A stretch of 59,473 nt of DNA from Chiloscyllium plagiosum (taxonomy: Eukaryota), in contig NC_057717.1 in assembly GCF_004010195.1 (NCBI RefSeq), forward strand, positions 106,943,945 to 107,003,417, read 5' to 3'. This document shows, one piece after another, positions 1,597 to 53,400 of this stretch. A model generated the notes under the pieces. It worked only from the letters and a program-made list of their open reading frames with translations. It was not told the DNA's origin and ran no database searches. Within the stretch, counting starts at the first letter, position 1. Each line of letters opens with the position of its first letter. Made by a program: the position numbers and the translations under genes.

Positions 1597-3090
1597 TCCT
1601 TAAAAGTTTCACACAGTCAGTGACATGGGTGGTTGGAAAATATATTGTCATTTTTGGTGATGTAGTACACCACATTTTACTGGGCCAGAGATCATTTACT
1701 TAAGATTATGAAACTGATGAGCTAACCTGGCAAATTTAAACCTTCTCTACAATGTCTCCTCAGAAACTCAGTGCAGTACCTGTGCAATATCATCTGCAAA
1801 TTAGCAAGATGTTGATGGAGATTGCTGTACTACAAGACAGCAGTGAACCCTCTTGCTAATTAAACCAAACACTCAGAAAAGCTCACCTCGCCTCATAATC
1901 TGTTAAAGTATGAGTGACAGAGAACTCCCAAATTCCACTATTCAAAGAATATAATATCAGTTTATTCTTTAACTCCTAAAAGTGAACACTAAACAGCAAC
2001 TATTTACAACTCTAAGCCTCCCTTTCTCTTAACTGCTTATTATCTGCCTCCCACTTTATAGGAATATAATGTTCCAGTAAAATCTTATTAAAATTGCATC
2101 AGCTTAATTTCAAACCACACAGTGGCTTTCGTCATCGGTGTCTGTCTTCTTCTGGCTGAAGATCTCCCTGGGTCATCTTTCTTTTTACTGTGAAGATGTT
2201 TCATATGAAAAAAGATACCTTTGATAGAGGGTGTTTTGCTGGAAGTTACTCTGTCTAACTTTCAAAATGCCTGCTTCTTTATACCCCAAGCATCGGATTG
2301 CCTTATAGGTTTGAGGTTGGCAAAAACATTAAAATCAAACTCGACTGGGGCATAATTTAAACTGGCTAAATTCAAATTGTTGTCAAAACAGCAACCAAAA
2401 CTCAGGTATACATTTCATAGCCAAATGTTACATATTTTCAATTTTCCAGTGCACCGTGAGACTGCTAGCTAGTCATATGACAAGTGCTTGGAAACTCTCA
2501 GTGCAAGACAGCATTCGCTGTCTCTTAAAGGTACAGTACACACACTTCATAACAGCTGGCAGAACCTAACCCCTATCTTGAAACTGGAGCTTAACATAAA
2601 GCTCACTCACTCACCCTGTCTCTAGTGAAGACTTGAATCCACTGCTTTCTTTCCTTTCCCTGTTCTAGATATCACCCTGAGAGGAAGGGACGAAGTGAGA
2701 GGAAATGCCATTTTATTGAAGTTAAACAATATTGTTTGTGGTCAGACAGGTTCATACACCTTCATACATATAAGCATGCAGAAGGGAAGACATAATTTCA
2801 CGAGTATCAATGCAGTTATGTGAGCAAAACTATGCGAATTTTCACAAATACAAACAACTGACTGTGTATCGAAAAAGCAGGAAAATCGACGTTTCGGGCA
2901 AAAGCCCTCCGAAACGATGATTTTCCTGCTCCCTGGATGATGCCTGACCTGCTGTGCTTTTCCAGCACAACTCTAATCTTGACTCTAATCTCCAGCATCT
3001 GCAGTACCCACCTCCACCTGTGTATCTAAAAACTCATAGCCATTTTCTCCATCATGCCAAGGTTCAGTTAATCTTTGGGGACTGACTCAC

Positions 3091-3187
3091 CTTTGTTTAT
3101 AGAATCTACAGAAACTGAAGGAAATAACTGCAGTCACCACAAATGTAGAGAACAGTGCCACAAGCATCCAGGTCACAACCTGTGAAC
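3091..3187 (-). CDS. Receptor exon: transmembrane helix (GSQVVTWMLVALFSTFVVTAVISFSFCRFYKQR)
   Basis: 97 bp, ttgttcag| and |gtgagt, phase 1->2; hydrophobic run followed by basic stop-transfer residues. Confidence 0.9.
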
Positions 3188-6100
3188 CTGAACAAAGCAG
3201 AAAACAGGATCAGAACTTACACACACGGCCAACAGGCAGGCCTGCTTTTTCACTGACTGGACTGCCCAATACACAAACTACCAGTAGCTGCTTTCACTAC
3301 ATTTTCTCATCAGGCAGCTCTCTTCTGATTCAGAAGGTTACGGTGTCAACCATGACTCCAGGACTTGACTTCAGACAACAGCAGTGCAACACTGAGGGTG
3401 TGCAGCACTGTTAGGAGGTCAGTACTGAGTGTATGCTGCACTGTCAGAGGGTCAGTCCTCGGGGCGTGCTGCACTGCCAGAGGGTCAGTCCTCGGGGCGT
3501 GCTGCACTGCCAGTCAGTGCTGAGAGAGTACCGCACTGTTGGAGGATCAGTACTTAGGGCGTGCTGCACTGTCAGAGGGTCAGTACTCGGAGTGGGCTGC
3601 ACTGCCAAGTCGGTGTTGAGGGAGTACCACACTGTTGGAGGATCAGTACTCAGGGCGTGCTGCACTGTCAGAGGGTCAGTACTGAGGGTGTGCTGCACTG
3701 TTGGAGGGTGAGTGCTGAGGGAGTCCCATACTGTTGGAGGGTCAATACTGAGGGAGTGCTGCACTGTTGGAAGGTCAGTGCTGAGGGAGTGCTGCACTGT
3801 TGGAGGGTCAGTACTAAGGGAGTGTTGTACTATGGGAGAGTCAGTACTGAGGGTCTGTTGAAAACCATTCTGGGTTGTGATAAGGTGGTGTATGAATTCT
3901 TTAATATTTATTTGCCATGATTTATATCAATTCCTCTTAGCTGAAAATGCATTTTCTCATTGTGATTGAGCTTGAGTTTAAAATAAAAACAGAAACAGCT
4001 GGGAAAACTCAGGATGTCTGCAGCATCTGCGGAGAGAAAGCAGAATTAATACTGAAGAAGAGTCACTGGATCTGAAATGTTAACTCTGCTTTCCCTTCAC
4101 AGATGCTTCTAGACCTGCTGAGGTTTTCCCATTGTATCTGTTTTTGTTTCTGATTTTCAACATCCACAGTTGTTTGGTTTTTTTTTTGTAAAGATCTTGA
4201 CTTTGACCTTGGGAAAATACTGAGTCATGGCTCTTTCCACATTACAAGGATATCATTGTTTCTCATTGGGTTGCTGGAGATCCTGGACTGTTTTCATTTC
4301 AAAAATCTGGAAGTACCATCACTATTTCCTTCCCAAACCACTCCCTTACCCCGTTCACCAACATTACCTTGTGTTTTGAAGTGAAGGTATGGCCCTCTAC
4401 GTCCCTCTCCTGCAATAGTGGACGCTGTCATCCAGATTGTGTAAGTACTGTCGGGCTCCAAGTGTGACAATGTATATCTGTCTAATGTATAGCTTAAATT
4501 GCGAGCTGTGAGGAAGAACAAAGTTTTGAGATGTACATCTTTTTCCCTCATAGAGCCAACATAGAGAAGCATGTAACCATTCATATTTCATCCATGCAGG
4601 AACTCTTCAAGTATACGTCCAGCTAAGTGAATGTTGAGGCTTATTCAACAATGGGGCCAATATCCAAGATTCACACACACACACACACATTTACAGTCCT
4701 GCAGAATCAATGGATCTCAATCAGGAGCCATGCGTTTGTAGCTAACCTGTGATTCCAGGCCAAATGCAAGCCTTACTACGACACATCTCACCCATTCACA
4801 GGGGTTTCATTGTAAGCACGGAGATAACACACCCATGGAGTGGGGTTTCATGGTGAGCACCAGACATATTGTACCTATAAATGGGAAGGACATGCTGAGC
4901 ACCAGAGATAACACAGCACTGAGTGTGGGACATGGTAAACACCAGACATTACACAGCACTGAGTGGGGTTACACAGAGGTTACACATGTTCCCTCTATTA
5001 GACTGACACAAACGGCTTCTCACTCAATCTCCTTGTATCATAAATGTTTTACATGAATTGTCAATTTAATCCACCATTGAAATACAACTCTAATAAGTAG
5101 CTGAAACAGTTTAATGACAGTTGTTAATAACTGCCAATCAATTCTAGTCCAGTAAATGAGAAGCAAAACAATAATGCATTTCTTCAGGCTGTGGATTGTT
5201 GAAGGAGGTTTTAATAGTGTCAGATTTTAATTTTTTTTTCCTTTCTGCCATTTTTTTCTCTCTCTGTCTGTTACTGCAGTCTATTTTCTCTTTCTTTTGT
5301 ACTTATCTCTGTATAATAACCTCTAACTTATCCTCTTTCTTGATGATTTTTTTATGATTCTAGATCCTGAAGTCTTATTGAGGAAGGAGATACCAGCATG
5401 GCCATGTTCTTCAGCAATGCTCTCTGCACATTGTTATTAGCTTGTTCTTAACACAGTAAAATGTTTTGGAGCTGAAGGCTGAAAGAAAGTTGCAGTTCAG
5501 TGTGGGGTGACCCACTTCAGTGAGTTCCAGGCCGTCGGGTATTCACTGGCAGTGTCAGGAAAGTAGAGCTGAGGGTTGTGACCCTGGCTGTGAAATAGAT
5601 TAATTTCTCTGCCACAGCTGTGATAGTCAAAGAGAATTCAAAATCCTAAAAACCTAGCTTGAGATATTGCAAGCAATCAGTGACTGCTCAGGACAGACTT
5701 TGCAAAGCCTGTGGCAGAGGGATATCAGTACTCAACTGTTGAAAGTCACATGAATTACACAAGCTATTGGATTCAGGACCAAGATGTGAAAATAAAATGG
5801 ATAAAACTACTTTAGCTGTGGTCTCACTAATATCCTGTATGCTGGTAGCAAGGCACCTACTTTTATACTCTATTCCCATTGTAATAAAGGTCAACATGCA
5901 ACTATGTCCCAATTATTTGCTGTACCTACCTACTAACCTTTGTGATTGATGGACAAGGACACCCCGAAAATCATTCTGTGCTGCTGTATTCAGCATTCTG
6001 TCTTTACTTCAATAAGATCTTGCTTTTCTGATCTTGCTGCCAAAATCGCAAACCTCACATTTTCACATTATACTCTATTTGTTAAGATTTCTGTCCACTC

Positions 6101-9100
6101 ATTTAATCCACTTTATTTCTTTGTAGACTCTTTACATCCCTCTCAGACTTGTTTTCCTACCTATCTCTATATCATCAACAATTGTGGCAACTCTTTGTCT
6201 GAGTCATTAAAATGGATCATAGATCCCACCATTCAATCCTATGGCACCAACCTGAAAATGAGCAACTTGTAATTTTTGAGAAGATTTGTAGCTCATGTTG
6301 CGGTTCAGATTATAAGTTTGCTCACTGAGCTGGAAGGTTTGTTTTCAGGCGTTTCGTCACCATGCTAGGTAACATCATCAGTGAGTCTGCGGTGAAGCAC
6401 TGGTGTTATGTCCCACTTTCTATTTATGTGTCTTAGTCTGTTAAGGAGGGTGATATCATTTCTGGGTTTTTTTTCTCAGAGGTTGGGAAATGGGGTCCAA
6501 ATCGATGTGTTTATTGATGAAGTTCCAATTTGAATGCCAGGCCTCTAGGAATTCCCGTGCATGTCTCTGTTTAGCCTGTCCTAGGATGGATGTATTGTCC
6601 CAGTCAAAGTGGTGTCCTCCTTCAACTATATGTAAGAATATTAGTGATGGTGGGTCATGTCTTTTCATGGCTGGTTTGTGTTCGTGTATCTTGGTGGCTA
6701 GTCTTCTGCCTGTCTCTCCGATGTACTGTTTGTTCCAGTCTCTGCATGGTATTTTGTAAATAACATTTGTTTTGCTGATTGTTTGTGATAGTGTCCTTCA
6801 GGTTCATCAGCTGCTGTTTAAGTGCATTGATAGGTTTGTGGGCTACTATGATGTCAAGTGGTCGGAGTAGCCTGCTAGTCATTTCAGAGATGTCTTTGAT
6901 GTATAGTATTATGACCGGAGTTTCTGGGTCCATTGTTGTTTGTTGTTTGTTGTTTAGGAATCGGCGGACTGTGTTTATCGAGTACCCGTTCTTCTCATAT
7001 ACGCTGTATAGGTATTTTTCTTCAGCTGCTCATAGTTCCAGGGTGCTGCAGTGTGTTGTGACCTGTTTTACTAATGTCCTGATGGAGCTCTGTTTGTGGG
7101 TGTTGGGATAATTACTTCTGTAGTTGAGAATCTGGTCTGTGTGCGTTGCTTTCCTGTAGATCTGAAGGTCTCCATTAACTGTTTGTTCCACTGCGACATC
7201 TCGGAAGGGGAGTATGTTGATGTTCTCCTCTTTTGTGAATTTTATGCCAGTAAAGATACTGTCAATGATGCTGTAGGTTTCCTTTAATTTGTTCCTTTTT
7301 TTTTGTGATGATAAAGGTGTCATCCACGTAGTGGACCCAAAGTTTGGGCTGTTCGTTCAAGCCTCCCCCATCCAACCCAAACTTTGGGTCTGCTCTATGG
7401 GTGACACCTTTGTCATCACAAAATGGAACAAATTAGAGGAAACCTACCACATCATCAACAATATCCTGACAGGCATAAAATTCACAAAAGAGGAGGAGAA
7501 CAACAACAGACTCCCCTTCCTAGTTGTCACAGTGGAACGAACAGTTAATGGAGAACTTCAGACAGGAAAGCAACACACACTGACCAGATACTCAACTACA
7601 GAAGCAATCATCTCAATAACCAAAAAAAGAGCTGCATCAGGACATTATTTAAACAGGCCACAACACACTGCAGCATCCAGGAACTATGAGCAGCAGAAGA
7701 ATAATACCTATACAGTGTATTTGAGAAGAACCGGTCGCCGATAAACACAGTCCGCCGATTCCTAAACAACAAACCCAAACAAGCAGACACAACGGGCCCA
7801 GAAACTCTAGCCAGATTACCATACATGAAAGACACCTCTGAAATGACTACCTGCCTACTCCAACTTCTTGGCATCATGGTAGCCCACAAACCTACCAAAA
7901 CACTTAAACAGGAGCTGATGAACCTAAAGGATTCTATAGAAACAACCAGCAAAACAAATGTCATTTACAAAATACCATGCAAGGACAGGCAGGCAGAAGA
8001 CTAGCCACCAGGATACATGAACACAAACCAGCCACTAAAAGATATGACCCATCATCACTAATATTCTTACATATAGTTGAAGGAGGACACCACTTTCACT
8101 GGGACAACACATCCATCCTAGGGCAGGCTAAACAGAAACACGCACAGGAATTCCAAGAGGCCTGGCATTCAAATTGGAACTTATCAATAAACACATCGAT
8201 TTGGATCCCACTTACCAACCTCTGAGAAAAGAACCAGAAATAATATCACCCACCTAACAGACCAAGATACATAAATAGTGGGATATAACACCAGTGCTTC
8301 ACTGGAGGCTCACTGATTATGTTACCTAGCATGGTGATGAAACGTCTGAAAACTAACCTTCTAACTCAGCAAGCAAACTTACAATCTGAATGAGCAATTT
8401 TTCCTGACTCTCCATTTCCTGATTATCAGTAGATCCTCCATCTACACTGATACGTCACCCATACAATAAGACCATAAATAGTAACAGGAATAGGCAATTC
8501 AGCCCCTTGAGCCTTGAATTTACCATTCAATAGGATTATGGCTCATCTGACATTCCTCTTGCCAACTTTCTTGCATTTTCCCTGTAACTCCTGATTCTAT
8601 CTATCTCAGCCTTAAATATGCACAAGGACTCTTTCCGCTGCAGCTGTGTCGAGGTTTTCCAAAGACACTCAAACCTCTGAGAGAAGAAATTCCTTTTTAT
8701 CTCGATGAGCTCTTGTTCAGTAACCTTTTATATAACACCATTTGGAATGCATTCTAGAAATGCAAATATGCCACATATACTGGTTCCCTTTAATTCAGCC
8801 TGCTTTTTACATCTTCAAAGAACTATAATCAATTTGACAAACATGATTTCCCTTTCACAAAATCATGTTGACTGCCTGATATTATTTTGTTTTTCTAAAT
8901 GTCCAGCTAATATTTCCTTCATAATGAATTCTGTCAATTTTCCTGTCATGGAGTTAGGCTAACAAGCCTATGGTTTTCTGCTTTCTGTATCCCTGTTTTC
9001 TTGAATAGTGCTGTTACATTTACAGTTTTCCCTTCTGTTCATACTTTTCCAGAATCCAATAACTCTACAGCCACCTCCTTTAAGTCTGTAGGAAGCAGGT

Positions 9101-12100: not shown

Positions 12101-15100
12101 ACACTGAGATCCTGTACAGAAGCAGGGGATACAGAAGACCTGAAAAGAAAACAGGCTATCAGTGCTCAGGAACAAGCCTGCACAAGCAGACGTGAATTGA
12201 GTTCAGCATGCACACCATTGAGAGAATGGAACCATCACTTGCTCGCTTCTGTCCCAGTCTTGTTTTGTAAGCATAGGATTAGATACAGAGTAGAAGAGAA
12301 AATGAGGTCTGCAGATGCTGGAGATCGGAGATGGAAGTGTGTTGCTGGAGAAGCGCAGCAGGTCAGGCAGCATTCTAGGGAACAGGAGAATCGACGTTTC
12401 GGTCTTTCCTGAAGAAGGGCTAATGCCCGAAACGTCGATTCTCCTGTTCCCTAGAATGCTGCCTGACCTGCTGCGCTTCTCCAGCAACACATTTCCATCT
12501 TAGATACAGAGTAAACATTCTCGCTACACTTTCCCATTAAAAACTCCCAAGACAGAAACAGCTAGGGGTTAGATACAGATCAAAGCTACCTCTACACTGT
12601 CCCTATCAAACACTCCCAGGACTGGTACAGCAGGAGTTAGATCCAGAGCAAAGCTGCCTCTACACTGTCACCATCAAACACTTCCAGGCTGGTACTAACA
12701 GGGGGTTAGATATAGAGCAAAGCTTTGTCCATTCTTTTCAACTGAAAGTATAGTTATCTCTACTCTTTGTCTGGAGACTCACTGAAGATGTTACGTAGTA
12801 TGGTGACGAAACATCCGAAAATGAATCTTCCAGCTCAGTGAGCCAACCTACATCCAGTAAAGCTCTGTCAAAACTGTCCCTATCAAACAATCCCAGAACA
12901 GAGACACCACAAGACGAGATAAAGAGTAAAACTCTCCCTACACTTGGATTAAATTAGAGATTAATCAGTAGCAATTTCATGCTGTGGTTACTTGGCTGCT
13001 GGGACATGACACAGACTGATAAACTCATTTCACATTTTTATCCTGTCAGTCTATGCTTGCTTAAAAATCTGCACCAGCTTACACTTACCTTCCACTAAGG
13101 TTACACACACATTCGCTGCTGGTATTTTTTTCCAGTTGAGTGTATACTCTGAATTTACCGGCATTTTATACCATTCCACCACAAACTCTTCAGGAGTTGC
13201 ATTGGCTGGTGGCTCCCAAAACACCTGTACTGAGCGGTTCCTGCTGTGAACTGTCATATTGAATGGTGGCGGAAAGCCTGATCAAAATAAGCAATACAAA
13301 TAAGTTCACTTTGGAATTCTAGCTGACACCCTGCTCCCACCCCCACCATCCCACTCCACTAAATTCCTTGCCCCTATGAAGGTGCATGGCTCAGTCTCAT
13401 GGTGCTGCTGTGATTGTCTGTTATATGCAGCGTGCAACGGAACCAGTGGATATACTTGCAACCACTGTTTGTCATATTCACTTTTACTGGTATCTGAAAC
13501 TCCATGTGTAGAGGGAAATGTAGTGCATGTTTGTCATGGTGTAGTGATAATACACTGGTGTTAGTGATCTAGCTAATGGTCTGGGGACATGGGTTTTAAT
13601 CCCATCATGGCAGTGCAGTTGACTCTTAACAGCCCTGTGAATTTTCCTTGGAAAACCACTGTGTTCAAGGGCGGTTTGGAATGGTAATAATCACCCCCAT
13701 GCCATGAAAGAATAAAAGCAGGTACAATTTCTTATACACGTGTGCAAGAGGCAGTGATGTGTACACAACTACTGTTCTCTCAACACATTTAAATAGGCCT
13801 TTGATATCTGTTTGAGGTACAGTTCACCCTGCGCACTGTGTACATCTCTGTGTTTATGTTTACCTGCTATGAGGTTGAGTATGGCTGGCTGAGTTGCTCC
13901 AACAGAGTTGTGTGCAGTGACGTTCACCCATTGAGTGGTCCTTGGAAGGTTGAGACTACAGCAGGCAGTCGATGATATTGCTTCCTCTGTTGTCATTTCT
14001 CTGTAGACCACTGAGTATTTCTGAATTATTCCTCTTGCTTGATGTTGTTCAAGACGCTGCAAACCCACACCCCCCAAATAAATTATCATACTTGGATCTA
14101 GTGATGGGTTTGAATGTTGGAAGTTAGAAATTCATGTGTTTGAGTTAGAGAAGGGTCAGAAGGATGAGATGTTCAAATCTTGAATGAGAAATGGAGTTTG
14201 AGGAGCTGAATGCTTTAAGCCAGTGTCTGTGTTTGGACAGGTATCAGAGATCAGAGTGACAGGTAGAATGTGCAGCCATTGCCATGTGATCCACATGGTG
14301 AAATGTTGGAGAAATCAGAGCTGGAAGGAATTAAGCCACATCCAATGGCACACACAGCAGCTCAGATAGAGTCACCTCAGTAAACCATGAAAATATTGTT
14401 GGGTGTAGCTGAGGGAGGTGGGGAATTAGACTGGGACCTTCAGAAAATTAGGAAGAGTGATGATTGATAGACGAAGCAGAGTATTAACATATGTCTGGGT
14501 AAGTCTAGAATTATTGGAACAGAAGTGAATCATGAAGGTCAGTACAGTTGGAGATTTGAGGGCATTAGCCAAGGACACAGTCTGAGAGCTGATTAGTAGC
14601 TGTAGTAGCAGAACACAGACAGACTTGCAGGGTTTCTCAAGCAACAGATTACCAAAGAACATAGACCACGTCAAATGTAACCCAGACGGTGATATGATAT
14701 TGAACATTTTCTCTAGCAATGTGAACTTCCAGACTGGGAGATTTGAGCAGCCCAGAGTTCCTTCTACTTTAGGAGAAAGTGAGGTCTGCAGATGCTGGAG
14801 ATCAGAGCTGAAGATGTGTTGCTGGAAAAGCGCAGCAGGTCAGGCAGCATCCAAGGAGCAGGAGAATCGACATTTCGGGCATAAGCCCTTCTCCAAGAAT
14901 GAGGAAAGTGTGCCAAGCAGGCTAAGATAAAAGGTAGGGAGGAGGGATTTGGGGGAGGGGCGTTGGAAATGCGAAAGGTGGAAGGAGGTTAAGGTGAGGG
15001 TGATAATGTNNNNNNNNNNNNNNNNNNNNNNNNNNNNNNNNNNNNNNNNNNNNNNNNNNNNNNNNNNNNNNNNNNNNNNNNNNNNNNNNNNNNNNNNNNN

Positions 15101-18100: not shown

Positions 18101-21100
18101 GATTCCAATTTCATCCTGTGAAATCTTTAATGTAATGTAGCAAATGTGGTTATTTTCTGGAGAACTCTGTATAGGGAGGAGCTCCCTGTTAACCTTCACA
18201 GTTTGTTTTGTGATGTGGAGGAGCAGGTGTCAGACTGGGGAGGACAAAGTTAAAAATCACACAACACCAGGTTACAGTCCAACAGGTTTATTCGGAAGTA
18301 CTAGGTTTGGGAGCGACGCTCCTTCATCAGGTAGCTAGTGGGGTAGGATCATTGGACATAGAATTGAGAGTAAACAATCAAATTGTCAAATAACTGATCC
18401 GATGTATTGAACAAACTTAGATTGTTGTTCAGTCTTTAATCACTTAGAATGGGGATGCAGGTTTCAATTCATTAATATGTGAATCCCAGAACTTCTTTCA
18501 AATCACAGTCTGGAGATAACAACGTTTTATCAAAAAGGTGACATCTCAGCTCAGACAATGCATTAAAGCTGTGAGGTTAGAGTCTGTCTGTATCCCAATC
18601 TTGAGTCAGACTGATTCTATTTCCAAAATAGTAATTTATAAAATGAAACATGGACTGACTGCCTACAGATTGGCTGCTTTTTGAGCAAAATAGAATGTAT
18701 CTGCAAAGGCAAATCTGAAAATACAAATTCACCCTACAGACTTATATGTGTGTGTTCTAAGTGATTAAGATTCAACAGCAATCTAGGTTTGTTCAATACA
18801 TTGCATCAATTGTATGACACTTTGATCTTTTACTCTAAACTTTGTGACTTATGATCCTGCCCCACTAGCTACCTGCTGAAGGCTTGTACTTCCAAATAAA
18901 CCTGTTGGACTATAACCTGGTGTTGTGTGATTTTTAACTTTTTTATGTGTCAGTATCCGAGTGAGTGGGCAATTCCTTCTGATCAGTTATTAAACTGTGT
19001 AATTTTTGAAAGCTGTCAGCCTCTACTTTGCTCACTGAGTACAGAAGTAGGTTAGGTGATATTTTGGTCCATCTCTACAGTGACATCTTCCTCACCAGTA
19101 GCAGCACAGAGATTCCCGCTGGCTCCAGTGAATCCAGTGGGGGACTCTGCATGGGTCTGTGCAACAGTGTGAATTGGAAAAGGAAGGACGGGAGAGAAGC
19201 TGCTGCTGTCAGGATTGAAAGTGAGAGGGCCACCTTTCAGGTGACCCATGGGTTCTTGTTTGAGGGATGCATGGCCCAGGTCTTGGGGCCTCCACCTCAG
19301 AAGACCAATGATTCAGGAACAAGTAAAACCAAAAAGAAACTTAGTGGGTCTTGCAGCATCTAATGAATGAGAGACATTAACATTTTTTCCAATGCAATAT
19401 GCCTCTTCTTCAGAACCTAGGTTTTTATTTCACATTTCCAGTGATTTTGCCTTTATTCATAGAGTTCAGGAGCATCGATTACAGGTGGAATTCAAGTCGT
19501 GTACATTGTGCTTAGACAATAGCTAAATGCAAGATGTATGTGATTCGCTGCACCGCACATGTCTGATAACCTTCAGACAAGCCAGCAGCAGTGACTTGTC
19601 TGGATAAACCCGCAGGTTCCAGATTTCAGGAAATGATTAGATTCCCTACAGTGTGTAAACAGGCCCTTCGGCCCAACAAGTCCACACCGACCCGCCGAAG
19701 AGCAACCCACCCAGACCCATTTCCCTACACCTAACACTATAGACAATTTAGCATGGCCAATTCACCGAACCTGCACATCTTTAGACTGTGGGAGGAAACC
19801 GGAGCACCCAGAGGAAACCCAAGCAGACACAGGGGGAATGTGCAAACTCCACACAGACAGTTGCCCGAGGCGGAAATTGAATCTGGGTCCCTGGTGCTGC
19901 GAGGCAGCAGTGCTAACCACTGGGCCACCATGCCGCCCTGATGCTGAGAAAATTGGGGCTTGTGTGATATCATTTGTCAATTTAAAAGCTGTTTCAGCAT
20001 TGACAACCTTGTCAGTCTCACATGATGTGACTGGGCTCAAGTCTCTGATGATACCAATCAGATATTTGTAAAACATGGAGGCTCACTTCAAATCAGCAAT
20101 TCGTTTTGCTGGAATACCTCAGTGAAGTGACTCTGCGTGGGAATGTCACCTACATGATTAGGAGAGTCATTGTAAGATCAGAAAATCAGACAAGGCCCTT
20201 CAAGAATATAAAGGAAGCAGGCAAGAAACAGGAATTAGGATGAAAAGGGCCCAGGAAATGCCCTTGGCAAATAGGATTCAGGAGAATCCCAGGGCATCTT
20301 ACACATATAGTGGGAGCAAGAGGGCAGGTAGGTACACTCAAGGACAAAGGAAGGAACTTATGCATAGAGTGAGAGGAAGTGAAAACTTCACATTGGTATT
20401 TACCAAGGAGCAGGACACGGATGAGGGTAAGATTAGGATGGGGTATGTTGATATTCTAGGACCTGTCGATAGATAACTCCCCAGAGCCCTTGGGATCTAT
20501 CCCAGGATACTGAGGGAGGCAAGAGAGGAGATTGCTGGGGCCTTGACAAAGATCTTTATATCCTCTTTAACCACTGCTAAGGTTCCAGACTGGAGAATAG
20601 CTAATGTTGTTCCTTTGCTTAAGAAGGGCAACAGGGATAATCCAGGAAATTATAGGTCAGTGAGTCTTACATCAGTGGTAGGGAAATAATTGGAGAGACT
20701 TTTAGGTAGAGGATTTATTCACATTTGGATGACAGATGAGGTGAAGCATTTGGGAGGTCAAATGCAAGAGGAAAGGATACCGTAAATGGCAGAATCCTTA
20801 GGAACAGAGGGATCTTGGGCTGCAAGTCCATTTCCTGTGTGGTACTAGGATAAAAGGTCGACACAACATCGAGGGCTGAAGAGCCTGTACTGTGCTGTAC
20901 TGTTCTATGTTCGATGATCTGTTGGGGTTTATCACCCAGCCTGTGTTTATCATACCTTGCTGTCACTTGCTACTCTCACCATCTAAAGAGCACACCAATA
21001 CTTGACTCCCTTAAAGGGCTCAAACAGATAGGGCAAAGACTGACTTACCTCAGTCCAGAAAAAGTCACCTACAACTCTGTACTGAAGCTTAAACTGGAGG

Positions 21101-24100
21101 GTTTTTGATGAATCGAGGTTGTTGGGTTTCTGCCATGTAATAAATATGGATTTTGAAGTGTTCGGTGTCAATTCTCCAGTCACAGCAGCTGGAGACAGAG
21201 GCTTCACTAAAGGAACAATACAGCAGTTTCAGAAAGTGTAAGCAGTTGGAAAGACAGCCATTACCATTGACTACATCTATTCCAACCCAAGACTGGCTCT
21301 TCAATAATTTGAGCCATCTGGCTCCAGATTCCATCACTGCATCTGCATGAAACCTCACTAACTCATCATGATCAAGACAGAAGCCAGCCAGGATTACCAT
21401 ACTATAGCTGTTGAGGTAAGGCAATATTTTTACCTTTGAAAGTATGGACTTTTAGCCCAATGAGAGTCAGTCTGTGTGAAAACTGTATCCCAGTCAGTGT
21501 CAGTGTATGTTGAATTGTACCACACTCTTGATAGTACCAAGAGACACTATCTGCGGAACCTGTATCCCAGTATTAGTCAGCATGTGGGCAATTCATACCT
21601 CTATGAGAGCCAGGCTGGGTGTTGAATTATACTTCAGTGAGAATCAGTGTGTGTAGATCTGCATTCCAGTGAGTGTCAGTATGTGTTGGATCATACCCTA
21701 GTGAGAAATCAATGTATGTGGGACCTATACCACAGTGAGAGGAAGAGTTACAGGCTATTGAATGTTTGTGAGTAAAGTTGTTGTTTAGTGTGACCAGGGC
21801 TATGTGGTTGGTTGTTAGCCAGAGTTGATAGAGTTCACCTGACCTCCCCATCAAATTTCACCCTTACAGATATGCAGCCAAATCACTCTCAGCTCAGTTC
21901 AAATCCTGGTCACAGGGATGATAGATAAAAGTTTAGTCCACTCTGCAAATGAGTTCCCTCACTGAATTGACACAAAAATGGCTAAAGTGCCTGGTACAGT
22001 TATCCAAAGGTCTTTTGTTTAGCTAGTTGTGCATTGTGTGACAGAAATGCTAACCATTGATTATGACAACAATCTCTGTACCTATGTCATCAATGATGAA
22101 TTCCAGTCTTTTTAAGCTTTCCTCTCTCTCTGTGCCACTGGTCTTTACCCAGGCAACGTAGGTTCTTCCTGCAGTGAATTGCTTCCTCTCCAACATCAAT
22201 GAATGTAAACAGGTCGATATTTCAGTTGGGTCAGTGCTGTGGGAAGAAGAGTAGGCCATCAATGTGCTTGAAAGGATTCCTCCAAACTCAAGCAGCACAG
22301 ACAGTTATACTGCTCACTTGTTCCAAGACAGGTTGTTAATGGCCACAGGATCTAGCAAGAGTTGGCCAATTCCTGCATAAATCGTGCCCCCCCAGGTTTC
22401 GAAAATCTCAAAGTTCAAAACAGTAGGTAAAAAGTGTAGTTAGGTAAAAATAGGAAGAGACTTGAACCATTTACTCTCAAGCCTTTTCACTGTCCAACTA
22501 GATGATGACTAATCTGTCATCTCAGTCCCAAGCTGTCTAGCGAACATTCATCAAACTCTTGACTTGAATTTTTCAATTGCCCCCAGCCTCAACAACTTTC
22601 TCAGGGGCAGAGTTCCACATTTCTCCTTCCCTTTGTCTGAATAAGTACTTCCTGATGTTATCCTGGTATTTCTGAGTAAAGAGAAGACCTGGTGGGGAGA
22701 AGACCAAAATTGGAGGTGTAGTGGACAGCAAAGAAGGTTACCTCAGATTACAATGGGATCTTGATCAGACGGGCCAATGGGCTGAGGGTAGCAGATGGAG
22801 TTTAATTTAGATAAATGTGAGGTGCTGCATTTTGGAAGAGCAAATCAGAGCAGGACTTATACACTTAACGAGAAGTTCCTAGGGAGTGTTACTGAACAAA
22901 GACATCTTGGAGTGCAGGTTCATAGCTCTTTGAAAGTAAGGCCACAGGTAGATAGGATAATGAAGAAGGCGTTTGGTATGTTTTCCTTTATTGGTCAGAG
23001 TATTGAGTACAGGAGTTGGGAGGTCATATTGCAACTGTACAGGTCATTGGTTAGGCCACTTTTGGAATATTGCGTGCAATTCTGGTCTCCTTCCTATCGG
23101 AAGGATGTTGTGAAAGGGTTCAGAAAAGATTTACAAGGATGTTGCCAGGGTTGGAGGGCTTGATCTATAGGGAGAGGCTGAACAGGCTGGGGCTGTTTTC
23201 CCTGGAGCATCAGAGGCTGAGAGATTTATAATTTTTTTAAAAAATACATTGCATCAGTTGTGTGACAGTTCTTTAACTATAAATTCTGTGTCCTGTGATC
23301 CTGTCCCACTTTCTGATGAAGGAGCAGTGCTCCAAAAGCTTGTATTTCCAAATAAACCTGCTGGACTATAACCTGGTGTTGTGTGATTTTTAACTTTGTA
23401 CACCCTGTGTTATCAAGTTCCACACGGTCTCTCTTGTAAAGGCATTTGTCCTAAATTCCCTACTGGATTCATTTGCCATCTTATATTGGTGCTCCCAGAT
23501 CTCGTCTTGGTTACAACTGGAAACATCTTCCATTATATTAACCCCAAACTCCCCCACAATTTTGAAGACCTCGATTTGGTCTCTTAGAGTCATAGAGACG
23601 TACAGCATGGAAAAAACCCTTCGGTCCACCTCACCCAACTAGATATCCTAAACTAATCTAGTTCCATTTTCCAGCACTTGGTCCATATCCTTCTAAGGTT
23701 AGAGTGGTGCTGGAAAAGCACAGCAGTTCAGGCAGCATCCAAGGAGCACGAAACATCAATTTTCCTGCTCCTTGGATGCTGCCTGAACTGCTGTGCTTTT
23801 CCAGCACCACTCTAATCTAGGATCTGGTTTCCAGCATCTGCAGTCCTTGTTTTTACCATATCATTCTCAACCCTTGCTATTCATATATCCATCCAGATGC
23901 CTTTTAAATGCTGCAATTGTACCAGCTCCACCATTTCCTCTGACAGCTCATTCCATACACACACCACCCTCTGTGTGAAAAAGTTGCCCCTTAGGACCCT
24001 TTTATATCTTTCCCCTCTCACCCTAAACCTATACCCTCTAGTTTTGGACTCCCCAACCCAGGGAAAAGACCTTGTCTATTTATCCTATCCATGCCCCTCA

Positions 24101-33240: not shown

Positions 33241-33944
33241 AAAGCGTGCTCCTGACAGCCCTGCACTAATGCTGCAGTGTTGACAGTGTAGTGCTGAGAA
33301 AGCACAGCAGGTCAGAGAGTTCCTCCTTCCTGATGAAGGGCTCTTGCCCGAAACATCAATTCTCCTGTTTCTCAGATGCTGCCTGACCTGCTGTTCTTTT
33401 CCAGCACCACACTCTCAACTCTGATCTCCAGAATCTGCAGTCCTCACTTTCTCCTAGTTGACTACTAACACTGCAGTGACAAAACCCAATTGCTGGGGGA
33501 GGCTTCACAAAGTCTGAGTGGAGGAACAAGATCAAGATCCATTGGGGGGGTTCCCAGGGGAAATGAAACTTTGGGCATCTTGTGCATCTTGCTACAGTGT
33601 CAGATATCCTCTAGTAGGCATGGGATATTTACCAGCAGCTCTGACCCTCTCCCCAGTAGGAAATAAATGTTTACCATCAGCCCTGATCCTCTCCCCAGTA
33701 AGAATTGGGTATTTACCAGCAGCCCCGACCTTTCCCCAGTGGGAAATGAATTGGGTATTTACCAGCAGCCCTCATACAAATAACCTGCTGGAAATGCTAG
33801 GAGACAGAGGGTCAAGCCTGAAGGAGGGACTGAAAGAAATCCAAATTATTAGTCAAGAAATGGTATTTAGGAAATTGATGGAATAAGTCCCCAGGCCGTA
33901 ATGCTGTGCATTCTAGAGTACTTATAGAAGTGGCCTAGAAGTGT

Positions 33945-39400: not shown

Positions 39401-39754
39401 TCCTTTCCACCTATCCACTCCACCCTCCTCTCTGACCTATCACCTCCATCCCCACCCCATTCACCTATTGTACTCTTTGCTACCTTCTCCCCAGCCCCAC
39501 CCCCCCATTTATCACTCCACCCTGGAGGCTTCCTGCCTCTATTCTGATGAAGGGCTTTTGCCCGAAATGTTGATTTTCCTGCTCCTCAGATGATGCCTGA
39601 CCTTTTCCAGCACCACTCTGATCTGAACTCTGGTTTCCAGCATCTTCAGTCCTCACTTTTGCCTATAAGGTATTTACCTGCCACCTTGAGTCTCTCCCCA
39701 GTAGACACGGTGTGTTTAGCAGCAGCTGTGACCCTCTCCCCAATAGGTACCTCT

Positions 39755-45497: not shown

Positions 45498-46441
45498 TAT
45501 CTAACATGGTATTGTGCCTGTCTTGGGAGTGTTTGATGCAGATGGTGTAGAGGCAGCTTTACTCTGTATCTAACCCCGGGCAGTCCCTGTCCTAGGGGTG
45601 TTTGATAGGAACAGTGAAGGGAATATTTCACTTTCATCTAACTCTGTGCTGTATCTGTCCTGTGAAATCATGGAAGGTTGTGTGAAATTCTGGTCCTCTA
45701 TAACAGAAAGGATGTAACTTTCATAGATAGAGTTGGGATGGGGTTTACAAGGACAGGACAGGACAAATGAAACTTTGAAGAAAGATTGGATAGGCTGGAG
45801 TTGTTCTCCTTAGAACAGAGGAGGGTGATGGGAGATTTGATTGAGATGTACAACAGTTTAAGGAGTGGATGGGAAAGGCCATTTACCTTCATAGAAAGAT
45901 CAGACTATGACACATAGATTTAAAATAATTAGTAGACTGACTGAAGGAGGAAAAAAACTATCTTCCCCCACAAAGGCGCAAGGGTTCTGAAAGGGTCATA
46001 GAGGCAGAAATTCTCACTTCATTTAAAAGGTGTCTGGAAATGCATCTCAACCTGCTCCTCGGATGCCGCCTGACCTGCTGTGCTTTTCCAGCAACACACT
46101 CTCAACTCTGATCTCCAGCATCTGCAGATCTCACTGTCTCCTATTGTAACTGCAGACCTATGGATGAAATGCCACAAAGTGGGATTAGGCTGGGGACTTG
46201 TTTCTCAGCCAGCACAGATTGGTGGGCCAGGCAGCCTTTCTGTACTGTAAACTTGCTGAGATTCAGGAACTGCATCACCTACATGTTGTGGATCTCCTCT
46301 GCAGAGGTTTTGAACAAGACGCTATGGACTCCTAACCTGCTACAGCTGCAATGACTGTAAGTGCCTGCTGCCATGTCACAGCAGCTACAGATTAACAATG
46401 TGCTCTTTCATTTCTTTGTTGTGTAGAAGAGGTTTAATTAC

Positions 46442-46485
46442 CTGACAGGGTGCACAGTGCAGGCTGTGGTCCTGCTGGTGACCTC
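46442..46485 (-). CDS. PDE4A: PDE4 exon (RSPAGPQPALCTLS, linker region 1)
   Basis: 44 bp, tccacag| and |gtaatt, phase 2->1 bridging the flanking exons; RSP...TLS matches the PDE4A linker. Confidence 0.82.
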
Positions 46486-47570
46486 CTGTGGAGAAAATCA
46501 GAAAAACAAGTAAGTGCTTGTATAGGCATGGGGGTGATAGCTGCTTGCAAGATTGTGCAGACAGCATGCACACAAGATGGACAGAGACCAGACATGCTTT
46601 GAAAGAATGCAGATAGCAGACAGTGCATGGAAAGGATTATGACAGGCAATATTCACACATGAAGTGGAACTGCCAGTGTTGGACTGGGGTGGACAAGCTC
46701 AGAAGTCACATGACACCAGGTTTATTTGAAATCACAAGCTTTTGGAACGCTGCTCTTTTGTCAGGTAAAGGAGCAGCGCGCTGAAAGCTTGTGATTTCAA
46801 ATAAACCTGTTAGACTATACCCAGGTGTCATGTGGCTTCTGATAATATTCATCCAGATAGGATACACAGATAGCATTAAACAGGATAGACACAGACAGGA
46901 TACGTACAGACAACACCCAGACAGGATACAGTAGACAGGAAATACACACTCACAGCACGCAGACAGCTCCCAGAAAAGTACACGCAGACAGGAAACGAGC
47001 AAGTGTACAATGAGGTACATATACACACACACACACACATACACAATAAATTACGATGTGTAGAATTTCCACTGTTTGATTTGATTTTGGGATTGCACTA
47101 TTGTTGCACTTTATGAGATACCAAGTGATTGAGTGCTCCATAGTGTATCCATGGGGCCTTCAATTATCCTCCAAATGTACTTCTCTGCGCTGGCTCTGCA
47201 GTAACTCTTGGACAGAATCTGGTTACTGAGGTGCGTAGTTTGAGTGAGGAGGTTTTCCTTGTGTAGTCGTGGTGATGGTGGTCAGGGGTGGGGGCGATGC
47301 ACTGTGCCCCCACAATCACAAGTGTAGACATTGTGAAAACAAAAAAGAATCTGTTGGCATATTTTTTTTAAAAGGCTGCTGTTCCTATAACCCTATGAAA
47401 GTATCAGACAAACCATTAAATGATTGATAACGGAAATGTCAGACACTCCATACTTCTTAATCTTATCCAAATAAACATTGGGACATTGACAAAAGAGATC
47501 ACAGAAATGCAAAGACAATGAAGCTTGGCTGTAAGCTCAGACTAATCAAAGTACAGGTTGGCATACACTC

Positions 47571-47598
47571 CTGATGAAGGGCTCCTGCCCGAAACGTC
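47571..47598 (+). ncRNA. Minimal hammerhead ribozyme-like motif with intact core
   Basis: CTGATGA-A-GGGC-tcct-GCCC-GAAACGTC: core boxes, 4-bp helix II, palindromic ACGT helix III, GUC cleavage triplet; helix I is very short. Confidence 0.55.
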
Positions 47599-49443
47599 GA
47601 CTCTCCTGCTCCTCAGATGCTGCCTGACCTGCTATGCTTTTCCAGCACTGCACTTTTCAACAGGAGATTGTTTTAATGACTTTGCTAGATTGATGTCCTT
47701 GCAAGATCATAGTAAGTTATTCCTAGCGTGGAAGGAGCGTGGTTTAAGTTTTTTTTCAATTTCCCTTCCAAAGAGATTGCGGATGTAGACTAGTTCACAG
47801 CTGGGGCTCTGTGAACCATGAGCCATGGGCAAGCTGACCTGACTCTGTAGTAACTGCTGGAGACTAGGATGCATATCCCTATCCTGCACCACCAGAAATT
47901 GGAGGCACTGGGAATAGGGGTGGGAATTATGGAATTGGCCACTATTTGCTGTTTTTTACTCTGGGAAAATTCAGGACTTAGAGAGTCTGCACCATATTTC
48001 ATGCTCACTGCAGGCTGATATTGACCTTTCCAGGATGCAGAAGCTGTAATACCACAACCCCCTAGGGGAGTACAGTGCAAAGTTATAACTTCAGGGTTTC
48101 TCTTGCATTCAAGCAGATTACTCAAAACAACTACCCCATAACCTCACCCGAACAGAATTGTCTGAAAATTCACCCTCAGATGATCTACTGGGTTTCTCTG
48201 AGGGATTGATCAGAACTCTCCAGTAGGGGTAGACTGGGAATTCACTAGGAGGAGCTCAGCTCATCTTCCTAGTACCAGGCATTTCCATTGTTTCTCTGGG
48301 GTTCCTGCCAATGTTCCATCAAGATTATATCAGGACATTGAGATAATCCTGTGAAGATTTGAAACAAGCGTGTGTTTGGTGCAAGGGGACCAGGAGTCAC
48401 TAAGTTCATTTTCCAGCTGCTAACTCGGGTTAATCAGTAACAACTGACATTTTCCTGAACAAGCAGAGGCTAATCTAGTAAAAAGGAGCCCAAGGGAAAA
48501 ATTGATAAGAATCTGTAAAATTATGACTGTTCAGTAGAATGAATGCGGAGAAACTATTTCCGCTTGTGAGAACAACAGTACATAGATATTAATATCTTTT
48601 CATTCATTCACAGGATGAGGGTATCACTAACTAGGCTAACACTTGTTACCCATCCCTAATTACCCAGAGAGCAATTCAGAGTCAACCACATTACTGTGGG
48701 TCTGGACTCACATGTAATCCAGACCAGGTAAGGATGCCAGTTTCCTCTATGAAGGACATTAGTGAACTAGATGGGTTTTTTCGACAATCAAAAGTGGATT
48801 AGTGGCCATCAATAGATTCTTAATGTCAGATTTCTATGAAATTCAAATCTCACCATCTCCTGTTGTGGGGCTTTGAACCTGGTTGGCCTACACTTGAATC
48901 TAGATGCAGAGCAGTGTGGTTGACTCTGCGCAATAATCATTAACAGGTGGAATTAAAAATTTAGGAAGAATTATTTTAAAGAAAGAGAAAAAAAACTTAT
49001 ATTTGGATAACTCTTTTCGCAACATGGGATGTCCCAAAATGCTTTGTAACCAAAGAAACACTTTTGAACTGTAGCCAACACTTCAACATGAGGATGATGA
49101 AAGTGTGGAACTTGGTGCCACAAGAAGTGGTTAATGATAGCATTAATTGGGGGGGAGGTGTTTGATCAACACATGGGGGGAGATCTGAATAGGAAGTTTG
49201 AGAGCAGTGTGAAAGAGCTTAACAGGACTTGAGGAATTCGTTTGGAGTACAAGTATGGTTTAACCGGGCTGAATGGCCACTTGTACATTGTTGAATCAAT
49301 GAAACCTGTAACTTTGAACTACGCTTGTGATTGGGTGCTGTGATATTCTCATGAATTCACCTCAGTGAATCATAGAATCATTGATGGCTAGAGGACTGGT
49401 CCATACCCTGGGCTGTGGTTGCCTGAAGATATCTGGTACTCAC

Positions 49444-49514
49444 TTATTTGGGGGTCCTTGGGTGTTGGCCAGAACAGTGAAGTTGTTCCTCACACTGCGC
49501 AAACTCGCCAGGAT
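49444..49514 (-). CDS. PDE4A: PDE4 exon (ILASLRSVRNNFTVLANTQGPPNK, end of UCR1)
   Basis: 71 bp, tctcag| and |gtgagt, phase 0->2; LASLRSVRNNF is a PDE4 hallmark. Confidence 0.88.
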
Positions 49515-50429
49515 CTGAGAGGAAGACAGAAAGAGATAAAGTAATAGACATATGTCACAGACAGTTCTGGGTACATACAGAGTAAAGTTGCCTCTTCACT
49601 GTCCCCATCAAATACTCCCAGGACAGGCACAGAACCATGTTGGAAACAGAGTAAAGCTCCTTCCGCATTTTCCCAATAATGTGTTTTCACTCCATGTTCA
49701 GCACAGCACCCTTTTTTAAACCATTGGGGTATTTTCCAATTACAAATCAAATATACAAGAATGACAATTGGAAACTTCAGTTACCCTAATAAAGACTGGA
49801 AAAAGAAAAGCAAAAGGCAAAGAGGTTAGTAACTCCTGAAATTCATTTTGAGGACTTTTAAAATTGATGCAGAATTTCTATTTTGTGGATGGTATGCAAT
49901 TTGGAAGCATCCTGAGCTGTAAGAAGGTTAGTGCAGAACTTCATGAAGTCACAAACACGTTGATGGGGTGAATTGACAATTAGCATATTAAATTTAATGC
50001 AGAGAAGTATGAAGTGATTTATCTCGTAGGAAGAATGTAGATATACAATATACAACAGGTAGTACGGTTCGGAAAGTGTACAAGAGTGGAGGGATATATT
50101 AAAATAGCAGGTGGATTCAGAGCATGGGCTAGTAAAAGCAATTACGTTATATTAACCTTGTATAAAACATTAGAATATTGCATTAGGATATTCTGAAGAA
50201 ATGTCATACTGACTCTCTCCACGCATGCTGTCAGATTTGATGAGTTACTCCAGCAATTTCTGTTTTTATTTCTGATCTCCAGCCTCTGCAATATTTTGCT
50301 TTCATCACAGATTTAAGGTGATTGGCAAAAGGACAGGAGTAATATGAATGGAAACCTCTTCACAGAGTGAGTGGTTACAGTTTGGGATGCCTGACAGACT
50401 GTGATGGAGGCAGGTTCACTCGAATGGTT

Positions 50430-53400
50430 AGACCCAGAAGCTATAGGAGCAGAATTAAACCACTCAACCTACCAAGTGTACTCTGCCATTCAATCCTGGC
50501 TGATATGTTTCTCAACTTCATTCTGCTGCCTTCATTCCCTCCCTCCAAAACCTTCGATCCCCTTTCCAATCAAAAACCTATCTATCTCTGTGTTAAATAC
50601 ACTCATGCCTTGACCTCCACAGCGCTCTGCAACAATGAGTTCCACACAGTCACCATCCTTTGGTTGAAAGAATTCATCCTCACCTCAGTTCTAAAAGGTC
50701 ATTCCCACACTCTGAGGGTGTGCCCTTGGGTCGTAGTCTCTGCTAGTAGTAGAAACATCTTAACCATATCTACTCTATCCAGGCTTCTCGGTATTCTGTA
50801 AGTTTGAATGAAATACCTCCTCAGCTTTCTAAATTTCACTGAGGGCAGACTCAGAGTCCTCAACAGCTCTTTAACCCCTTCATTTTCGGGATAATTCTTG
50901 TGAACATGCTCTGGACCCCCTCCAAGGCGAGCACATCCTTCCTTAAATACTGGGGCCAAAACTGCTCATTGTATTCCAAATGTGGTCTGACCAGAGCCTT
51001 ATACAGCCTCAGCAGTACATCTTGCCTTCCAGTACTCTTGAAATGAATGTAAACGTTGTATTTGTCTTCCTTACTGGCAACTGAACTAATCATCTTTTAA
51101 AATCCTGAACTAGGACTCCTAACTCCCTTTGTGCTTCTGATTTCTGAAAAGTTTCCCCATTGAGAAAACAGTCGCCATCTTATGCAGGGAGAAAGTGTGG
51201 AACTGCAGATGTTGGAGATCAGAGTCAAAAGGTGTGGTGATGGAAAAGCAGGTCAGGCAGCATCCGAAGAGCAGGAGAGTCAATGTTTCGAGCATAAGCT
51301 CTTCATCCTTTATTCCCTTGAACTTCCCCATCTCCTTCTCCTTCGTGATGGCCACTACACTCACCTCTGCCTCCTGACTATGCTACTGGTGTCTTCCACT
51401 GTGAAGACTGATGCAGGAGGATATAGATAAACTGGAGAGTTGAGCAGAAAAGTGGCAGATAGAGTCCAATCCAGACAAATGTGAGGTGATGCATTTAGGT
51501 AATTATACATTGAATGGAAGAGCCTTGGGAAAAGTTGATGGGCAGAGAGATCTGGGAGTGCAGGTCCACTGTACCCTGAAGGTTGCTGCACAGATAGATA
51601 GAGTGGTCAAGAAGGCATATCGTATGCTTGCCTTCATTGGACGGGGTATTGAGTATAAGAGCTGGCAAGTCATGTTAAAATTGTACAAGATATTGGTTCG
51701 GCCGCATTTGGAATACTATGTACAGTTCTGGGCGCCACATTACCAAAAGGATGTGGATGATTTGGAGAGGGTGCAGAGAAGGTTTATGAGGATGTTGCCT
51801 GGTATGGAAGGGGCTAGCTATGAAGAGAGTTTGAGTAGGTTAGGTTTGTTTTCATTAGAAAAAGGAGATCAAGGGGGACCTGATTGAGGTTTACAAAATC
51901 ATTAAGGGTATAGACAGGGTGGATAGCGATAAGCTTTTTCCCAGGGTGAAGGATTCAATAACGAGAGGTGGAAAGTTTAAGGGGGAAACACATGGCAAGT
52001 ACTTCACACAGAGGGTCGTGGGCATTTGGAACGCGTTGCCAGCAGAGGTGGTAGAGGCAGGCACGGTAGATTCATTTAAGATGCGTTTGGACAGATGCAT
52101 GAGTAGGTGGGGAGCAGAGGGATACAAATGCACAGGAATTGACTGACAGGTTTAGACAGTACATTTGGATCGGTTCAGGCTTGGAGGGCTGAAGGATTCT
52201 GTTCCTAGGCTGTAAATTTTCTTTGTTCTTCGTTCTAAAGTATCGATTCAGCTCCTTCACCATTTCTTCATTGCTCAGCCTCATTATCCAGTGGTCCAAT
52301 GTCTGCTCTTGCCTCACTCATACCTTTTATATATCTAAAAAAACTCTTGCAACCTTTCATGTTATGAGTTAGCTTACCCTCATATTTCATTTTTTCCCTC
52401 CTCTCCTCTTATTGCTTTTTTTAGTTACCCTCTGCTGGTTTTTAAAGGCTTTCCAATCCTCTATCTTCCCACTAACCTTCACCACAATGTGTGATTTTTC
52501 TTTTATTTTTATGTTGTCCCTGACTTCCCTTGTCAATCACAGTTGCCTCATCCTCCCCCTGGTGTGATTCTTCTTCCTTGGGATGAATGTCTTCTAAGCC
52601 TCCCAAATTACCCCAGAAATTCCAACCATTGCTGCTCCATTAATTTCCTTGCTAGGCCCCTTTTCCAATCAACTTTGACCAGCTCCTCCCTTATGTCTCT
52701 GTCGTTATCTTTACTCAATCGTAATACTGGCTTCTCCTTCTCACACTGTGGGGTGAGTTCTACCATGTTATGGTCAGTGCTCCATTAGGGGTTCCTTCAC
52801 TTTAAGCTCCCTAATCAAATCTGCCTTATTACACATCACCGAATCCAGAATTGCCTGTTCCCTAGTGGGCTCTACGACAAGCTGCTCCAAAAAAAACCTC
52901 ATAGACATTCCACAAATATCTTTGGTTTGGATCTGCTGCCAACCTGATTTTCCCATTCCACCTGCATATTGAAGTTTTCCCATGATTACTGTCTTTTCTG
53001 CTCCACAACCTGACTATTGCTAGGAAGCCTGTACGTAACTTCCAACAGGGTATTTTTTTCTTTGCAGTTCCTCAACTCTACCTACACAGTTTCTATGACC
53101 CCAATCTACCTATTGCACTCTCAGCTATCTTTCCCCCAGCCCCACCCCCTCCCACTTATCACTCCACTCCCTCGGCTCCCAGCCTCATTCCTGATGAAGA
53201 GCTCATGCCCAAAACATTGATTCTCCTGCTCCTCGGATGCTGCCTGACCCGCTGTGTTTTGCCAGCACCACACTCTCGACTCTGATCTCCAGCATCTGCA
53301 GTCCTCACTTCCTCTACACAGTTTCTATGCCTTCTGACCCTAAATTACTCCTTGCTATTAATGTCTTACTAAAAAGGCAACTCTTTCCCCTCTGCCATCT

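Follow-up and report, generated by a model that had tools for sequence, protein, structure and literature searches.

Three families of Penelope-like elements with minimal hammerhead motifs in their tails in a stretch of the Chiloscyllium plagiosum genome

The stretch of 59,473 nucleotides from Chiloscyllium plagiosum analyzed here (contig NC_057717.1, positions 106,943,945 to 107,003,417 of the forward strand; hereafter the window) is part of a 3.56-Gb assembly. Comparison with natural reference copies showed about 21 loci in it which contain a hammerhead ribozyme motif or the tail of a Penelope-like element (PLE). These loci are very probably insertions of three endonuclease-bearing PLE families, designated A, B and C, carrying in their tail a minimal hammerhead with a presumed weak self-cleaving role. 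The hammerheads are real, but they are located in the tails of ordinary truncated or folded-back PLE copies and do not form a new ribozyme-driven class of elements. The closest protein relatives of the retroelement frames are shark proteins, according to the names of their sources.

The pattern CTGANGA-N6-30-GAAA has 15 matches in the window, compared with 5.94 +/- 2.48 in shuffled sequences (0/100 shuffles reach 15). When a helix II of at least 3 bp is required, nine matches are found, compared with 0.455 on average and 3 at most among 200 shuffled sequences. A first-pass annotation, made from the letters alone, had proposed a recurring hammerhead motif dispersed over this region, and sequence inspection with the motif scan revealed an intact or decayed copy at every site that it listed. 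In detail, the intact cores at 12409-12436, 29401-29429 and 47571-47598 read as described there. The degenerate copies at 26082, 33330, 39544, 51286(-) and 53191 belong to family A, those at 18300(-) and 23313 to family B, and those at 6352-6381(-), 8309 and 12782 to family C, and the copy at 4052 is an older diverged fold-back relative.

The core is CUGAUGA-A-GGGC-loop-GCCC-GAAA-CGUC in family A, CUGAUGA-A-GGAGC-loop-GCUCC-GAAA-GCUA in family B and CUGAUGA-U-GUUACC-loop-GGUGAC-GAAA-CGUC in family C, with a helix III of ACGU in A and C and of AGCU in B. All three families possess the CUGANGA and GAAA boxes, the G10.1-C11.1 pair, palindromic 15.2/16.2 positions and one unpaired base preceding helix II, which is A in families A and B and U in family C. 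This set of features matches the published minimal hammerhead of PLEs, so that the Penelope-type identity suggested at first is upheld. Exact family A cores amount to 41,458 in the genome without their last four bases and to 21,180 with them, those of family B to 16,625 and those of family C to 281. The counts are lower bounds, the reversed-pattern controls for all three families gave 0 genome matches, and the high copy number anticipated from the window alone is thus borne out.

The sequence of helix II differs among family A, its GAGC/GCTC subfamily, family B and family C but is paired in each, i.e., compensatory helix changes exist between families of one genome. These pairings and the helix III palindromes, ACGT or AGCT, are as the first-pass annotation had stated. 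The GAGC/GCTC double form has 1,739 genome copies, and the respective single changes have 1,752 and 1,669. Set against the 41,458 copies of the main form, the single-change counts predict about 70 doubles under independence, and the compensated form is about 25 times commoner than that. The double form has its own loop (TTAT), which marks it as a subfamily in which the compensated pair is fixed. Helix I, too, is paired in register in each of the three families, with a sequence of its own in each (GA/UC, GUG/CAC and UGA/UCA), slid registers being unpaired, and a fourth pair is present in 37% of the family C copies. Pairs were counted by script; the cross-family MAFFT alignment misaligned helix II and placed family B off by one column. 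Since helix II changes its sequence between lineages yet stays paired, the motif is, as judged from these comparisons, kept by selection in the source elements.

The motif is located 90-135 nt from the shared 3' end in all three families. The sequence upstream of it in the longer copies passes through the 3' untranslated region (UTR) into reading frames; many copies of A and B extend upstream into the 3' UTR, a reading frame or a block of N. In family C, a frame at 7033-7356(-) encodes the C-terminus of a reverse transcriptase (RT) and the frame at 6459-6797(-) shows the VIY...YIGET pattern of a GIY-YIG endonuclease, with a second, frameshifted GIY-YIG copy within 7400-8310(+). In family B, the end of the endonuclease frame is found with its stop near 28755(+), about 640 nt before the hammerhead. 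The attachment of two families to GIY-YIG open reading frames, as first noted, is therefore confirmed. The Pfam scan, made with the 205 window frames of 70 aa or more, had no GIY-YIG match at E up to 0.01, and a relaxed scan gave one frame with E=0.11 (13.2 bits vs a cut-off of 22.6). In the homologue P0007, RVT_1 reaches 34.8 bits (cut-off 29.6) and a weak GIY-YIG lies C-terminal to it. Because the Pfam score is weak, the call rests on the VIY...YIGET motif and on the RVT_1 plus weak C-terminal GIY-YIG of the homologues. The order of these two domains in the relatives, RT followed by a C-terminal GIY-YIG, is that of canonical PLEs, as read from the family C frames together with P0007.

In family B, a CA/TG-rich microsatellite (28760-29110) separates the endonuclease stop from the hammerhead. 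A match to SCARNA7 is spurious and was produced by this microsatellite.

The loci are listed below; those marked as added were missing from the list of the first-pass annotation.

2876..3011, inverted arm 2876-2908(-) and direct arm 2909-3011(+): family A fold-back with its junction inside the hammerhead and a partial core
3984..4145, no strand assigned: family A relative, an old diverged fold-back with degenerate CTGAAGA...GAAA at 4052-4077
6272..7356, minus strand: 5'-truncated family C PLE copy with the RT and GIY-YIG frames given above; hammerhead 6352-6381 with GAAACGCC and one change at 16.1; tail to about 6272
7400..8390, plus strand: second family C copy, head-to-head with the preceding one; RT C-terminus and GIY-YIG frames, both frameshifted; hammerhead near 8309 degenerate (CTGATTA and GGTGAT)
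12296..12500, arms 12296-12402(-) and 12406-12500(+): family A fold-back of the TTAT/TAAT-loop subfamily; in its loop the core 12409-12436 with CTGAAGA, GGGC/GCCC and GAAACGTC
12774..12855, plus strand: short family C copy; hammerhead 12782-12811 with CTGAAGA and GAAACATC
14772..14931, minus strand (added): long family A copy of the TTAT-loop subfamily with degenerate core TTGGAGA, continuing into the N block 15010-15568
18223..18488, minus strand: family B copy; hammerhead near 18300 with GAAA changed to CAAA, then AATAAA
18885..18941, plus strand (added): family B tail fragment without core
23277..23405, plus strand: family B copy; hammerhead 23313 with GAAA changed to AAAA
23696..23857, no strand assigned (added): family A fold-back without the CTGATGA box, the right arm beginning at CGAAACATC
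26075..26209, plus strand: short family A copy starting approximately at the core, with CTGAGGA and GAAATGTC
28400..29520, plus strand: 5'-truncated family B PLE copy with, in this order, the end of the GIY-YIG frame, microsatellite, 3' UTR, hammerhead, ATTAAA and tail; intact core 29401-29429 with GGAGC/GCTCC and GAAAGCTA
33275..33454: family A copy 33327-33454(+) with a short inverted tail piece 33275-33315(-); core 33330 with GAAACATC
39401..39664, plus strand: long family A copy with 3' UTR and core at 39544 (GAAATGTT)
46051..46141, plus strand (added): family A, tail only
46666..46834, no strand assigned (added): family B fold-back with a partial degenerate core
47569..47648, plus strand: short family A copy starting at the core, with the intact hammerhead 47571-47598
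51188..51307, minus strand: family A copy of the GAGC/GCTC subfamily with degenerate CTGATGA box
53099..53314, plus strand: longer family A copy with 3' UTR; degenerate core 53191 with GAGC/GCCC and AAAACATT
54700..54757, minus strand (added): family A tail fragment

For the 12409 core there is the caveat that a long inverted repeat encloses it in its loop and that the arms of this repeat would pair with the GAAACGUC box. Blocks of N occupy 15010-15568, 16944-17443, 38648-39400 and 41982-42481; the first and the third border on the upstream ends of the long family A copies 14772-14931(-) and 39401-39664(+), respectively, and probably cover element bodies. At 23717-23799, the Rfam family mir-2756 scored 55.6 bits (E=3.7e-10), under its threshold of 61. 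This segment is a fold-back of two family A tails, and it follows that snap-back hairpins of PLEs can mimic microRNA precursors.

The anatomy of the insertions was studied in 52 family A copies chosen by their exact core and in 30 family B copies from the genome. Another 100 copies were chosen by their tail; 27 of these have an exact core upstream and 53 of the other 73 were examined (sampled copies are labeled L and a number). The 52 core-chosen copies comprise 20 long and 10 intermediate ones, 15 that start within 0-12 nt ahead of the core, and seven fold-backs. Their 3' ends fall into two classes about 40 nt apart (27/52 at +118 to +137 and 20/52 at +83 to +101), which resemble the known tail extension of PLEs. 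Family B includes 4/30 short copies and 7-8/30 fold-backs. Target duplications of 9-12 nt flank the short copies and are visible at L004, L021, L023, L029 and L038.

In composite insertions, such as L025 and L038, a pseudo-long terminal repeat (pseudo-LTR) leads into the first part of the element body, and after an internal deletion a second motif follows with its tail. The breakpoints differ between the two, and in L038 one breakpoint has been used twice within the single insertion. L009 carries an inverted tail fragment between its two copies, and direct pairs are few and 400-780 nt apart. The 5' truncation, the pseudo-LTR partial tandems, the adjacent inverted copies and the tail extension together correspond to the insertion pattern of PLEs. 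A junction between families was found in L072 (about position 1500, minus strand), where an inverted family A copy, reading through its own hammerhead, is joined to a family B copy, the point of contact being the CTGATGA box that both possess. The junction resembles the outcome of a template switch from one family to another at a microhomology.

The 5' ends of the 53 tail-chosen copies are spread from far upstream to +45, with a cluster of 17 at -9 to +3 (16 of them at -6 to +3) and a smaller one at +5 to +9. A concentration of 5' ends and snap-back junctions is seen within 0-10 nt ahead of CUGAUGA in both A and B (L038, L130, L132, L147, L157, L161 and others, as well as the window copies starting at 47569 and 26075). 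Each of the five commonest tail variants is found among the short as well as the long copies, an indication that the short copies come from the same source lineages, and the short units are accordingly read as by-products of autonomous lineages.

These characters are close to those of known systems. The minimal hammerheads of metazoan PLEs described by Cervera and De la Peña in 2014 (PMC4209133) likewise have the CUGANGA/GAAA boxes, a single unpaired base before helix II and G10.1-C11.1; they are devoid of a helix III hairpin, show palindromic 15.2/16.2 positions (which suggests dimers), are located in the terminal repeats of PLEs and occur in thousands of mostly solitary copies per genome together with inverted pairs. 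On the contrary, helix II is 4-6 bp in the present families versus 6-8 bp there, and the copy numbers are above the 4,000-9,000 given for coelacanth and Xenopus. Canonical endonuclease-bearing PLEs (Craig et al. 2021, PMC8557442; Frangieh et al. 2024, PMC11167929) share the strong 5' truncation, the pseudo-LTR partial tandems and the adjacent inverted 5'-truncated copy. Their tail is 30-40 bp, comparable to the approximately 40 nt between the 3' end classes found here, the hammerhead is near the 3' end, and no copy or read starts at the cleavage site. The Anolis element differs in that its frame starts inside the hammerhead, whereas in the present families a tail of about 133 nt lies between the motif and the beginning of the body.

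Similarly to the animal non-LTR retrozymes (Cervera and de la Peña 2020, PMC7229834, and the Li et al. 2026 preprint), the short units are noncoding, PLE-tied and hammerhead-bearing, and solitary monomers are common in both. Those retrozymes, however, are tandem units by definition, whereas the units of C. plagiosum are solitary or folded back. According to the abstract of PMC7229834, they have classical type I hammerheads and small circular RNAs; the hammerheads in the window are of the minimal type and unmatched by the Rfam hammerhead models.

RNA evidence was drawn from one poly(A) single-cell run labeled as the same species, with 2,170 reads aligned; in a second run, no read aligned. Untemplated poly(T) precedes place 413 of L005 in 220 reads and place 415 in 149 reads. 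In the numbering of a family B copy, these places are +57 and +55, and an AUUAAA precedes them by 14-16 nt. Together, these make 369 reads which extend over the family B core and terminate in untemplated poly(A) at +55 to +57; they may derive from any copy at least 92% alike and are not assignable to one locus. Because these reads cross the core, uncleaved and polyadenylated sense RNA exists. This agrees with PMC11167929, which describes uncleaved RNA as the main substrate of insertion.

In family B, a signal A(A/U)UAAA is present 8-9 nt past the predicted cleavage site (29430-29460, 18260-18290(-) and 23342-23370 in the window; 413-470 in L005), and genomic copies extend 40-65 nt beyond the poly(A) point. 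Intronic sense-oriented family B copies could act as premature poly(A) sites.

A copying route can be proposed from the anatomy of the copies and the published biochemistry of PLEs. The minimal hammerhead, about 90-135 nt from the 3' end, would lie in the region that becomes the pseudo-LTR. The PLE protein would nick the target, and reverse transcription would be primed inside the 3' tail of uncleaved element RNA. It would then usually halt early, switch template or snap back onto the new complementary DNA. The products would be 5'-truncated copies, fold-back pairs and pseudo-LTR composites with target duplications of 9-12 nt. The hammerhead would be passively carried into each dead copy, where it would later decay mostly at its CpG; the change to GAAACATC at 12782-12811 looks like such CpG decay. 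In the source element, the motif may be a weak self-cleaver which needs either a second copy, through the ACGU/AGCU palindrome, or the protein of the element. Its presumed substrates are multimeric or read-through transcripts of the element, and insertion would not depend on it. According to PMC11167929, cleavage in the Anolis element requires the element protein and the C3G/G8C rescue is ribozyme-like; mutation of the hammerhead leaves insertion in vitro normal, and the cleavage site coincides with neither the start nor the end of any read.

Several observations weigh against this explanation. The search of the window with the Rfam hammerhead models, which had been named at the outset as a check, returned zero matches both at the gathering score and at E up to 10. 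The Rfam hammerhead families comprise types I, II, III, HH9 and HH10. In the minimum-energy folds of families A and C, the CUGAUGA box is engaged in pairing with the region of the cleavage site, so that these folds are inactive, and the predicted cofold is without a double hammerhead. The predicted cleavage site is the starting point of only 2/53 tail-chosen copies (L115 and L137, each an inverted junction), a number not above that expected from the spread of the 5' ends. Read ends do not pile up at this site in the poly(A) run, which weighs little since the library cannot capture 5'-OH or cyclic-phosphate ends. RT and endonuclease evidence within the window is limited to family C and, for the end of the endonuclease frame only, to family B, the bodies of the long family A copies being represented by N. 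The helix II types AGGT/ACCT and GGGTCC/GGACCT were each seen a single time in the flanks and, with 8 and 1 genome matches, respectively, are not families. Contiguous helix I is only 2 bp in A and 3 bp in B and C, compared with the 4-5 bp next to the core in the consensus of PMC4209133, although the same source gives 2 bp for Drosophila virilis. The short helix I, the inactive folds and the abundance of uncleaved poly(A) RNA would fit with boxes and a helix II that are kept for a role other than cleavage, i.e., recognition by the PLE protein or a transcript-start signal, the hammerhead likeness being vestigial. The 5' ends and junctions at the motif start (the 17/53 cluster and the 15/52 core-chosen copies) and the normal insertion of the Anolis mutants point in the same direction. 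This role is nevertheless unlikely, because three families with differing helices all retain the catalytic boxes, G10.1-C11.1 and a palindromic helix III, which is not expected of a plain hairpin signal, and because the Anolis motif does cleave with protein. It could also be argued that the motifs match merely by chance within an abundant repeat and that no structure is under selection, as most copies are decayed and the members of one family share their descent, which gives their agreement little weight. Such an origin is hardly credible against the same architecture in three families with different helix sequences, the approximately 25-fold excess of the compensated GAGC/GCTC form and the empty reversed-pattern controls.

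The first-pass annotation had seen in the short units a retrozyme-like set of nonautonomous derivatives. They are nonautonomous in the trivial sense that the copies are without a complete reading frame; as a retrozyme-like set they are not supported. An independent lineage of this kind, transcribed, excised by its hammerhead, circularized and recopied by PLE enzymes, would be suggested by the 15/52 family A copies which are discrete, start 0-12 nt before the core and have target duplications, by the same short class in 4/30 family B copies and by the few direct pairs. The 2026 preprint (10.64898/2026.07.22.740005) ties animal retrozymes to the pseudo-LTRs of PLEs. Against this lineage, unit-length head-to-tail arrays, the tandem units of retrozymes, were found at 0 of the approximately 21 window loci. 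L025 and L038 are composites of a pseudo-LTR and body fragments with different breakpoints, and L009 has an inverted tail in between. The 5' ends are spread instead of forming a single class, with no excess at the cleavage site. No back-joined RNA linking the two sides of the cleavage site was detected in the poly(A) run, a library ill-suited to circles and hence weak for this question. The tail variants are common to short and long copies, which leaves a separate retrozyme-like lineage unsupported, and its existence is considered quite improbable. The same preprint derives animal retrozymes from PLE pseudo-LTRs and includes one cartilaginous fish; the part of the retrozyme idea that is supported is thus already in print.

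Within the explanation as truncated and folded-back PLE insertions, a tentative extension is that the start of the hammerhead marks the 5' end of the element RNA, with a transcription start or processing site 0-10 nt before CUGAUGA. It is brought forward because 5' ends and snap-back junctions cluster at the motif start in A and B and because of the reused breakpoint of L038, and it is held with little confidence. If true, the units of about 125-170 nt (motif and tail) would be retrocopies of short transcripts started in the pseudo-LTR, fold-backs would arise when the enzyme meets the RNA end and snaps back, and the solitary units would be raw material for animal retrozymes.

As for the surroundings of the loci, weak matches to fibronectin type III and cytokine-receptor D1 domains, all on the minus strand, are located at 4297-4587, 9136-9648, 13054-13281, 17909-18229 and 25833-26075. 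These matches suggest exons of a class I cytokine receptor-like host gene, in the introns of which many of the PLE fragments would lie. A long interspersed element (LINE)-type element, unrelated to the PLEs, is present at 34911-37351(+), with frames that match AP-endonuclease (E=1.6e-9) and reverse transcriptase (E=2.3e-12) domains.

Minimal hammerheads in PLE tails, their truncated and inverted scatter and the link to retrozymes are already in print, and the overall picture is unchanged. To this picture, the present data add three well-defined and very abundant PLE hammerhead families from a shark-type genome, which give a clean natural test of the conservation of helix II. For annotation, the motifs and the fold-back hairpins should be masked as PLE fragments, and it should be avoided to call them ribozyme genes, microRNA precursors or a new class of elements.

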